Positions 5,399-6,202 are shown, counted from the stretch's first letter. The stretch is DNA of 14,811 nucleotides from a virus (IMGVR_UViG_2534681835_000032:1-14811), one strand, 5' to 3'. The notes: generated by a model from the letters alone, not told the origin. A program made the numbers and translations.

Positions 5399-5502
5399 AA
5401 TGGTCACCTTAGTAATGCTCACAAAAATATTAACCATACTAATTTAAATGATCAATACCTATATCAGTTTGAGATTATGAACTGTATTCATAAGATGGTG
5501 GT
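5399..5502. promoter_or_regulatory. Divergent racR / ydaS promoter-operator region
   Basis: AT-rich 104-bp intergenic region between divergently oriented repressor (racR) and Cro-like (ydaS) genes; contains motifs (CATACTAAT, TGATCAATA) that recur near the promoter at 6108-6136. Confidence 0.5.
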
Positions 5503-5967
5503 ATGAGAAGAAAACGCGAAGAAATCGCATCGCCGGAAGCTACGCAACGTCTGCGCGCAATCTGGGATGCAAAAAAAAGAGAGCTCAAACTGACTCAGGA
5601 GCTTGCTGCCGAGCTAATGGGTTTTGAGGCGCAATCTGCGGTTAGCCATTATCTCAACGGAAAGGCTCCACTTAATACTGATGCGGCATTAAAATTCGCT
5701 GTATTACTAAGAGTTAAGCCTGAAGAGTTGAGGCCTGATTTAGCTGATCTGATGAATTACGTCCGTTCCTCAGGAACTTATGACGAAAGTTTCGAAGGCG
5801 AAGGTTGGCGGATGGTTAACAAGCAACAAGCTGATTTACTAGATCTTTTTGATATCCTTCCCGAATCAGAAAAAGCAAAACTAATCGAAAGACTTAAAGG
5901 TCAGAATGAACTCTACAAAGAAGCATTTGAAAATATGCTGGCAGCTCAAAAACGCATGAAGAAATAG
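5503..5967 (+). CDS. racR: Prophage repressor RacR (CI-like), 154 aa
   Basis: ORF MRRKREEIASPEATQRLRAIWDAKKRELKLTQELAAELMGFEAQSAVSHYLNGK... with N-terminal HTH; divergent from ydaS-ydaT; recognised as RacR. Confidence 0.85.
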   Translation: MRRKREEIASPEATQRLRAIWDAKKRELKLTQELAAELMGFEAQSAVSHYLNGKAPLNTDAALKFAVLLRVKPEELRPDLADLMNYVRSSGTYDESFEGEGWRMVNKQQADLLDLFDILPESEKAKLIERLKGQNELYKEAFENMLAAQKRMKK

Positions 5968-5988
5968 CTCCCACCATCTCGTAACTAA

Positions 5989-6012
5989 ACCGCCATTTTT
6001 GGCGGTTTTTTT
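5989..6012 (+). terminator. Rho-independent terminator downstream of racR
   Basis: Stem ACCGCC / GGCGGT with a 6-nt loop followed by six T residues, 22 nt after the racR stop codon. Confidence 0.7.
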
Positions 6013-6107
6013 GTCCCCTCCGCCCGCCCCCGCCTTACTTTTTATCAAAAAAACACTAAAAATTTCATTAGGATAGTACATTTTTATCAACGAAATGCAT
6101 ATTTGTG

Positions 6108-6136
6108 TTGATCATTAATATGAACATAACTAATAT
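6108..6136 (+). promoter_or_regulatory. Candidate sigma70 promoter (pL-like) for ydaG-ydaF
   Basis: TTGATC - 17 bp - TAATAT; AT-rich context; shares TGATCA(T)TA and CATAACTAAT motifs with the racR/ydaS intergenic region (possible RacR operators). Confidence 0.4.
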
Positions 6137-6202
6137 TATTACAGAAGCAGCACGGCGCTGTAGGTTTTAGTTCCGCCACCCGGCGTTAAAGGGAGAGATA
6201 AA

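Follow-up and report, generated by a model that had tools for sequence, protein, structure and literature searches.

Related operator-promoter sets on either side of the repressor gene in a Rac-like prophage: the probable OR/PR and OL/PL of a lambdoid immunity switch

The window analysed here is a 14,811-nucleotide stretch of viral DNA (IMGVR_UViG_2534681835_000032:1-14811) in which a repressor gene is flanked by two regulatory regions with look-alike motifs, one shared with a divergent Cro/YdaS-like gene and the other holding an outward promoter. The motifs were confirmed to be real and non-random, and we read them, at a probability of about 0.8, as the right and left operator-promoter sets (right operators OR with promoter PR, left operators OL with promoter PL) of an immunity switch belonging to a Rac-like lambdoid prophage. 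An OR/OL-type arrangement had been proposed in the initial annotation of this DNA, with RacR as the repressor. The arrangement is supported because the inverted repeat between the two regions is significant, the conservation of the sites in two groups of relatives (types A and B) is operator-like, the matching of OR with OL is immunity-specific (7 of 7 switches), and the sites are co-inherited with the repressor in one cassette. Divergent repressor and Cro-type genes surround a short multi-operator region (OR1, OR3 and an OR2 candidate), a second, OR-related operator set lies over an outward promoter beyond the repressor gene, and each immunity type has an operator sequence of its own, which is exchanged with the repressor. 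The elements of the proposed switch are listed below in window coordinates, the gene calls being those annotated in an identical record (E. coli 2014C-3061).

5123-5398, minus strand: Cro/YdaS-like gene (91 amino acids), annotated coding sequence, first gene of the rightward-type operon and followed by ydaT
5146-6166: heteroimmune immunity cassette, holding the Cro-like gene, OR, repressor, terminator and OL/PL and reaching to about +25 of the PL transcript
5423-5464: OR-side arm of the inverted repeat (repeat search and shuffle test)
5427-5455, minus strand: PR-like promoter TTGATC-N17-TAATAT (-35 at 5455-5450, -10 at 5432-5427), reading into the Cro-like gene
5428-5444: OR1, putative 17-bp operator TATTAAC-CAT-ACTAATT (TATTAACCATACTAATT), a pseudo-palindrome between the PR -35 and -10 and overlapping the -10
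5453-5469 or 5447-5463: OR2 candidate, overlapping the PR -35, a weak match to the half-site consensus
5469-5496, plus strand: PRM-like (repressor) promoter TTGAGA-N16-TAAGAT, called by a generic promoter scan, its -10 ending 6 nucleotides 5' of the repressor ATG
5476-5492: OR3, putative 17-bp operator TATGAAC-TGT-ATTCATA (TATGAACTGTATTCATA), lying across the spacer and -10 of the repressor promoter
5503-5967, plus strand: repressor gene (154 amino acids), helix-turn-helix (HTH) repressor
5987-6014, plus strand: intrinsic terminator following the repressor gene, with a stem of 9 bp and a T run
6085-6110: OL2 candidate, in register 6085-6101 (TATCAACGAAATGCATA) or 6094-6110, both containing the nearly invariant ATGCATATTT; 6100-6116 fits too
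6099-6140: OL-side arm of the inverted repeat (repeat search and shuffle test)
6108-6136, plus strand: PL-like promoter TTGATC-N17-TAATAT (sequence reading and invariance of the hexamers)
6119-6135: OL1, putative 17-bp operator TATGAAC-ATA-ACTAATA (TATGAACATAACTAATA), between the PL -35 and -10 and overlapping the -10

The two regulatory regions are joined by an ungapped inverted repeat of 42 nucleotides (5423-5464 against 6099-6140, 30 of 42 positions matching), which is longer than the strings first quoted for it. All of those strings are present (CATACTAAT at 5435-5443, TGATCAATA at 5449-5457, TGATCATTA at 6109-6117 and CATAACTAAT at 6125-6134), and so is the TTGATC-N17-TAATAT promoter that had been named with them (TTGATC at 6108-6113, TAATAT at 6131-6136); only the location given for the first pair (5438-5460) needs to be shifted about 3 nucleotides to the left, to 5435-5457. 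A direct match exists as well (5426-5443 against 6117-6134, 14 of 18), the two orientations being compatible given the pseudo-palindromic core. When both intergenic regions were shuffled 2000 times with dinucleotides preserved, the best ungapped OR-versus-OL score had a mean of 9.5 (standard deviation 1.3), and the observed score of 18 was reached once. A chance resemblance between the two regions is hardly credible in view of this: both are AT-rich and short AT-rich words do recur often (many low-value repeats), but it is effectively refuted by the shuffle result together with the conservation of the repeat in relatives and the same phenomenon in six other switches. The earlier suggestion that operators are shared by the divergent region and the outward promoter heading the early-left operon is supported by the inverted repeat and by the position of OL1 over the -10.

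A part of this echo consists of two copies of one promoter, as the OR arm carries TTGATC-N17-TAATAT on the minus strand, and PR and PL are two outward-facing copies of one design with identical hexamers and spacing. It is unlikely that the echo is nothing more than this, i.e. two copies of a sigma-70 promoter related by duplication with no shared regulator. The alignment is anchored by the hexamers, which match at all 12 positions, and both arms are outward promoters, as such a duplication would have it, yet on taking these 12 positions out 18 of the remaining 30 still match (binomial P = 0.009 at local composition), and OR3 has the same arms even though it belongs to neither PR nor PL. Also, the invariant left arm of OL1 and right arm of OR1 lie in the promoter spacers beside freely varying columns, and lambda shows the same specificity of own OR for own OL, its shared sequence being known as operator. 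As for the strings themselves, they are real, but their pairing in the initial annotation joins the -35 hexamer (TGATCA) to the right half of the 17-bp operator, and the ATTA of TGATCATTA shows no conservation among relatives (5 of 5 columns vary in 6114-6118).

The putative operators OR1, OR3 and OL1 are mutually related, and OR3 is related to OL1 in the repeat search. A pattern built from the three sites matches OR3 on both strands and gives 5 matches at up to 2 mismatches where 1.3 are expected, all of them inside OR and OL; one of these, 6085-6101 (2 mismatches), is an independent match that is not among the sites from which the pattern was built. The OR2 candidate was placed from lambda-like spacing and from homology to the OR2 of type C, a third group of relatives. 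The centres of OR1 and OR3 are 48 bp apart and those of OR1 and OL1 691 bp. This gives a concrete operator map, with arms TAT(T/G)AAC and sites OR1, OR3 and OL1.

Relatives were collected from viral contigs and three genome-contig loci, and fall into 15 distinct type-A copies (repressor about 88-100% identical), 22 type-B copies (about 69%, including phage Rac-SA53) and 2 type-C copies (about 50%). Among the type-A copies the arms of OR3 and of OL1 show no variable column (0 of 11 in each case), while the centre varies in 6 of 6 columns in OR3 and in 5 of 6 in OL1. For OR1 the outer positions vary in 1 of 12 columns and the inner ones in 2 of 5, and the promoter spacer adjoining OL1 (6114-6118) is the region found variable throughout. 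The -10 hexamers of PR and PL do not vary (0 of 6 columns each) and the -35 hexamers vary in 1 of 6 and 2 of 6 columns, respectively, against 13 of 28 for the PR leader. In the regions of the weaker sites, 5 of 24 columns are variable in the block 5445-5468 (OR2) and 1 of 10 in 6096-6105 (OL2). Type B repeats the pattern as TATTAGC-NNNN-CTAATT, with variation confined to positions 8-11 in the 22 copies, and in type C OR1 (TATTACCGCTGCGAATA) is the exact reverse complement of OL1 (17 of 17). Motif conservation across relatives, the check that had been envisaged for the echo, is found in the arms of the operator sites, which vary hardly or not at all in the 15 type-A copies, with the same pattern in the 22 type-B copies. 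Two constrained half-sites around a free centre are the mark of an operator bound by a dimer. The left arm of OL1 and the right arm of OR1 lie in promoter spacers, where RNA polymerase has no sequence requirement, and for this reason the polymerase cannot account for the conservation of the arms.

The best inverted OR-versus-OL alignment was also scored for seven heteroimmune switches, with lambda as the positive control and Qin as a further control. The score of each OR with its own OL is 18 for the window, 23 for K-12 RacR, 15 for the O157 DicA-like type, 14 for type B, 32 for type C, 19 for lambda and 13 for Qin DicA. No other OL exceeds the own OL in any of the 7 rows, with one tie (the type-B row with the related window OL). 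Scores between types have a mean of 8.2 and a maximum of 10, the related pair of window and type B being left out; window OR against Qin OL (9) and Qin OR against window OL (8) are at this background. In the lambda control the procedure recovers OR1/PR against OL1/PL in the same layout as in the window, i.e. operator over the -10 and then the -35.

On searching 4601-6800 by blastn against K-12 Rac (L002) and a Rac-like prophage of O157 (L003, which is the DicA-like type and not CP-933P), 93-96% homology ends at 5145/5150 and returns at 6167. From this comparison the Cro-like gene, OR, repressor, terminator and OL/PL are swapped together as one cassette of about 1 kb, the whole block from OL to cro moving as a single immunity cassette. 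Joint exchange of repressor and operators is the classical definition of an immunity region.

It may be noted that the mosaic junction at 6166/6167 is about 25 nucleotides past the predicted PL start, and that the PL leader beyond it (6167-6202) is kept in every immunity type that was compared, K-12 Rac, Qin dicBp and type C among them. A 4-bp hairpin in it, CGCC-N4-GGCG, lies at about 6174-6185 and in Qin shows one compensatory change, from CG to UA. The leader is possibly an element for processing, antitermination or translation control.

Several points weigh against reading the two regions as operator sets. The generic promoter scan calls neither TTGATC-N17-TAATAT promoter (8 of 12 consensus matches with a threshold of 9); PR and PL were retained because their hexamers are invariant and because there is precedent in other switches. 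The half-sites are rich in A and T, and allowing 3 mismatches leaves no more than a mild enrichment of the pattern (23 matches found, 12.7 expected). OR1 is a poor palindrome, with about 4 of 8 positions symmetric, and OR2 and OL2 fit several overlapping 17-mers with no confident placement. Much of the conservation could come in part from promoter function and from the recent common ancestry of the type-A copies. A covariation of OR1 and OL1 (a matched C-to-T change accompanied by Ala-to-Thr in the recognition helix), suggested by the window, L005 and L006, was rejected on further variants: in L011 and L018 a T in OR1 goes with a C in OL1, and in L016 Thr occurs together with C. The literature searched also holds no paper on this immunity type (the sole match for Rac-SA53 is unrelated) and no binding, footprint, reporter or transcription start site data.

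The protein that would read these sites combines, by its alignments, a DNA-binding domain of lambda-CI type with a C-terminal domain of DicA type. Homology to the N-terminal domain of lambda CI covers residues 12-82 (aligned to 8-76 or 13-82; phmmer against PDB, E 5.5e-9). BLASTP against Qin DicA aligns only the C-terminal 50 amino acids (residues 105-154 with DicA 85-134, 30% identity, 66% positives, E 9e-7) and nothing elsewhere, so a DicA-like N-terminal DNA-binding domain is not found; the C-terminal region also matches phrog_5736 (E 1e-7). Pfam gives only HTH_3 and HTH_31 for the 154 residues and no S24 peptidase domain, and because this autocleavage domain is lacking direct RecA/SOS induction is not expected. 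DicA is not cleaved by RecA and is inactivated by the antirepressor Rem (PMC10448788). By analogy we infer that the window repressor may be induced via an antirepressor rather than by RecA cleavage; no gene is annotated as Rem in the identical record, although no search aimed at a Rem homologue was made.

Among heteroimmune Rac-like repressors the DicA-type C-terminal domain (LLxLFxxLPxSE...Y) sits on unrelated DNA-binding domains, and the O157-type repressor (L003 3271-3687) is a full-length DicA homologue with the same type of C-terminal domain as the window repressor. This suggests domain shuffling, with the shared domain perhaps providing a common oligomerisation or antirepressor interface. 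As a tentative extension, which we think rather doubtful, the shared C-terminal domain of this natural chimera might be the common point at which oligomerisation and one shared antirepressor or stress signal act, and the compact OR-OL pair of 0.69 kb a minimal looping switch. If true, prophages of different immunity in one cell could be induced together while their operator specificities stayed separate.

In the proposed mechanism, repressor dimers would bind the 17-bp pseudo-palindromes whose arms are close to TAT(T/G)AAC, occupying OR1 and OL1 and probably the weaker OR2 and OL2 too. Such occupancy would shut both operons, because an outward promoter has its -10 under OR1 and another under OL1: at OR1 it would block PR, turning off the Cro-like gene, ydaT and replication genes, and at OL1 it would block PL, turning off the early-left operon from ydaG through recET, xis and int. 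OR3, lying over the repressor's own promoter, would give autoregulation, and the Cro-like protein would probably compete for these sites with the order of preference reversed. Looping between OR and OL via the C-terminal domain is possible across the roughly 690 bp. The identity of the binding protein, the cooperativity or looping and the transcription starts are all inferred.

Another candidate for the main reader of the shared sites is the Cro/YdaS-like protein alone, or the CII-like YdaT, in place of the CI-like repressor, which we consider improbable. In CP-933P the footprints of YdaS overlap those of the repressor PaaR2 and YdaS represses PL933P (PMC8630535), and the HTH region of the Cro-like protein is part of the same swapped cassette. 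But the sharing of operators by repressor and Cro in lambda and CP-933P means that such reading adds to binding by the CI-like repressor rather than replacing it, and the 17-bp geometry with TAT...ATA ends suits a lambda-CI-type domain. YdaT was tried as the reader and rejected: its box TTGATT-N6-AATCAA is not present within OR or OL, and YdaT of CP-933P has no effect on PR, PRM or PL (PMC8630535).

RacR is not the repressor of the window, as had been supposed, since the window protein is unrelated to it (BLASTP against K-12 RacR gives E = 4.5 over a 7-residue alignment) and the RacR box TTAGGC-N3-GCCTAA finds no match in the window even with 2 mismatches allowed. Because the window repressor is not RacR and the boxes are absent, the essentiality and toxicity of the RacR-YdaS-YdaT module, shown for the K-12 allele only (PMC5700373) and cited in the initial annotation, are not simply transferable. 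In K-12, RacR boxes TTAGGC-N3-GCCTAA are present in regulatory regions (PMC9638921), RacR binding has been demonstrated only in the racR-ydaS region (PMC5700373, PMC9638921), and ydaG, ydaF, kilR, ydaE and racC go up 40-70-fold when RacR is perturbed (PMC11014345). In the K-12 sequence we find three RacR palindromes in the racR-ydaS intergenic region. As a side observation, two more RacR-type palindromes (ATTAGGCATAGCCTAT and ATTAGGCATTACCTAT) lie 3' of racR in K-12 Rac (L002 4436-4479), over a TTGACA-N17-TATAGT promoter 5' of ydaG, and from their sequence would be the OL/PL for the true RacR; no paper describing RacR sites downstream of racR was found in the partly searchable literature. A RacR reading of both regions fits the sequence of K-12 Rac and fails for the window. 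The distinction corrects an easy annotation error, that of calling every repressor at this position of a Rac-like prophage RacR.

Phage lambda, Qin and CP-933P already show this design; the window carries an uncharacterised immunity type with the same switch logic and opens no long-standing question. With lambda it shares the divergent repressor and cro genes, the 17-bp pseudo-palindromic operators (lambda operators are 17 bp long in the record annotation), an O1 over the outward -10 on both sides of the repressor, a homologous CI N-terminal domain, a nearly equal OR1-OR3 centre distance (47 bp from annotated coordinates in lambda and 48 bp in the window) and a nearly equal OR-versus-OL score (19 and 18). 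A leaderless repressor mRNA, as is made from PRM for lambda cI, is a further probable likeness: in types A, B and C a -10-like hexamer lies exactly 6 nucleotides 5' of the repressor ATG with no usable Shine-Dalgarno sequence, and because of this the window mRNA is probably leaderless too. Unlike lambda, the window repressor has no S24 autocleavage domain, OR and OL are about 0.69 kb apart instead of about 2.4 kb with no rexAB, the half-site is TAT(T/G)AAC and not TATCACCGC, and PL is followed by ydaG/ydaF and not by N.

Qin has a short, non-cleavable repressor in DicA, whose C-terminal 50 or so amino acids are homologous to those of the window repressor. DicA represses dicBp, the counterpart of PL, and operators are found both in the dicA-dicC region and over this promoter (PMC10448788); as in the window, this PL-like promoter with its operators lies just 3' of the repressor gene, the leader after the promoter is homologous, and the downstream operon has a DUF1391 gene and DicF RNA. 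The DNA-binding domain of DicA and its operator sequences, however, are unlike those of the window, and the downstream operon carries dicB in Qin as opposed to kilR and recET in the window.

In CP-933P of E. coli O157:H7, also a Rac-like prophage, PL933P has -35 and -10 hexamers identical to those of PR933P together with OL1-3, PaaR2 and YdaS repress PL933P about 100-fold, and a YdaT-activated PRE lies between ydaS and ydaT (PMC8630535). The PL of the window likewise shares its -35 and -10 with PR and its operators with OR, and the PL-like promoter is the positional equivalent of both dicBp and PL933P. The differences are a paaA2-parE2 toxin-antitoxin pair after PaaR2, absent from the window, and a reported repeat consensus of GTTTAGTAA in 18-bp palindromes. 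A YdaT-box-like repeat was observed at the ydaS-like/ydaT junction of the window, matching the position of PRE933P. This is CTGATTTTCATGAATCAA at 5129-5146, the best box match in the window with 1 mismatch to the TTGATT-N6-AATCAA box of CP-933P YdaT, and by analogy it is a candidate PRE-type site driving antisense transcription toward the repressor gene.

K-12 Rac belongs to the same prophage family with the same flanks, ydaT and the region from the ydaG leader onward being 93-95% identical, whereas its repressor is unrelated and the Cro-like protein is 42% identical to K-12 YdaS across 50 amino acids only. The Cro/YdaS-like protein of the window matches Pfam YdaS_toxin (E 2e-10) as well as HTH_3, and its gene is separated from the divergent repressor gene by a 104-bp spacer. 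PydaST of K-12, which is strong experimentally, uses the same TAATAT -10 as the PR-like promoter (PMC11879457).

The 2-kb stretch around the operator motifs matches the E. coli 2014C-3061 chromosome at 100% identity, within a Rac-like prophage. The immunity type is carried by dozens of pathogenic and commensal E. coli, at least 80% of the stretch being present in 73 of 5426 complete genomes. K-12 Rac covers just 46% of the 2-kb query; on sequence comparison the window is a Rac-like prophage but not K-12 Rac. The PL-like promoter heads ydaG, ydaF, a DicF-like RNA, a Rha/Ash gene, kilR, ydaE, racC, recE, recT, ralR, xis and int, and the switch would therefore control kilR, recET, the DicF-like RNA and the excision genes. 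The remaining genes of the region, with gene order from the identical record, are as follows.

4717-5139, minus strand: ydaT, annotated coding sequence
6203-6337, plus strand: ydaG-like open reading frame
6348-6500: ydaF
6929-7777: Rha/Ash gene, absent from K-12
Past Rha/Ash: kilR, ydaE, a frameshifted racC, recE (8666-11413), recT, ralR, xis and int

The racC homologue at 8289-8566 is frameshifted according to the annotation of the identical record, and recE in the window encodes 915 amino acids. The sieB gene, found between ydaF and kilR in K-12 and in the O157 prophage, is absent from the window (6480-6525 of the window against L002 4926-5479), and homology to K-12 at this position skips from window 6479 to 6526. 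Between ydaF and Rha/Ash in the PL operon, as dicF is placed in the Qin dicBF operon, lies the DicF-like small RNA (6686-6740, plus strand), a full-length match to Rfam RF00039 at 42.8 bits (gathering threshold 48, E 1.5e-7). Just 3' of it we observed an STnc100-like small RNA match (6752-6898, plus strand; RF02076, 40.6 bits against a gathering threshold of 47, E 6e-7).

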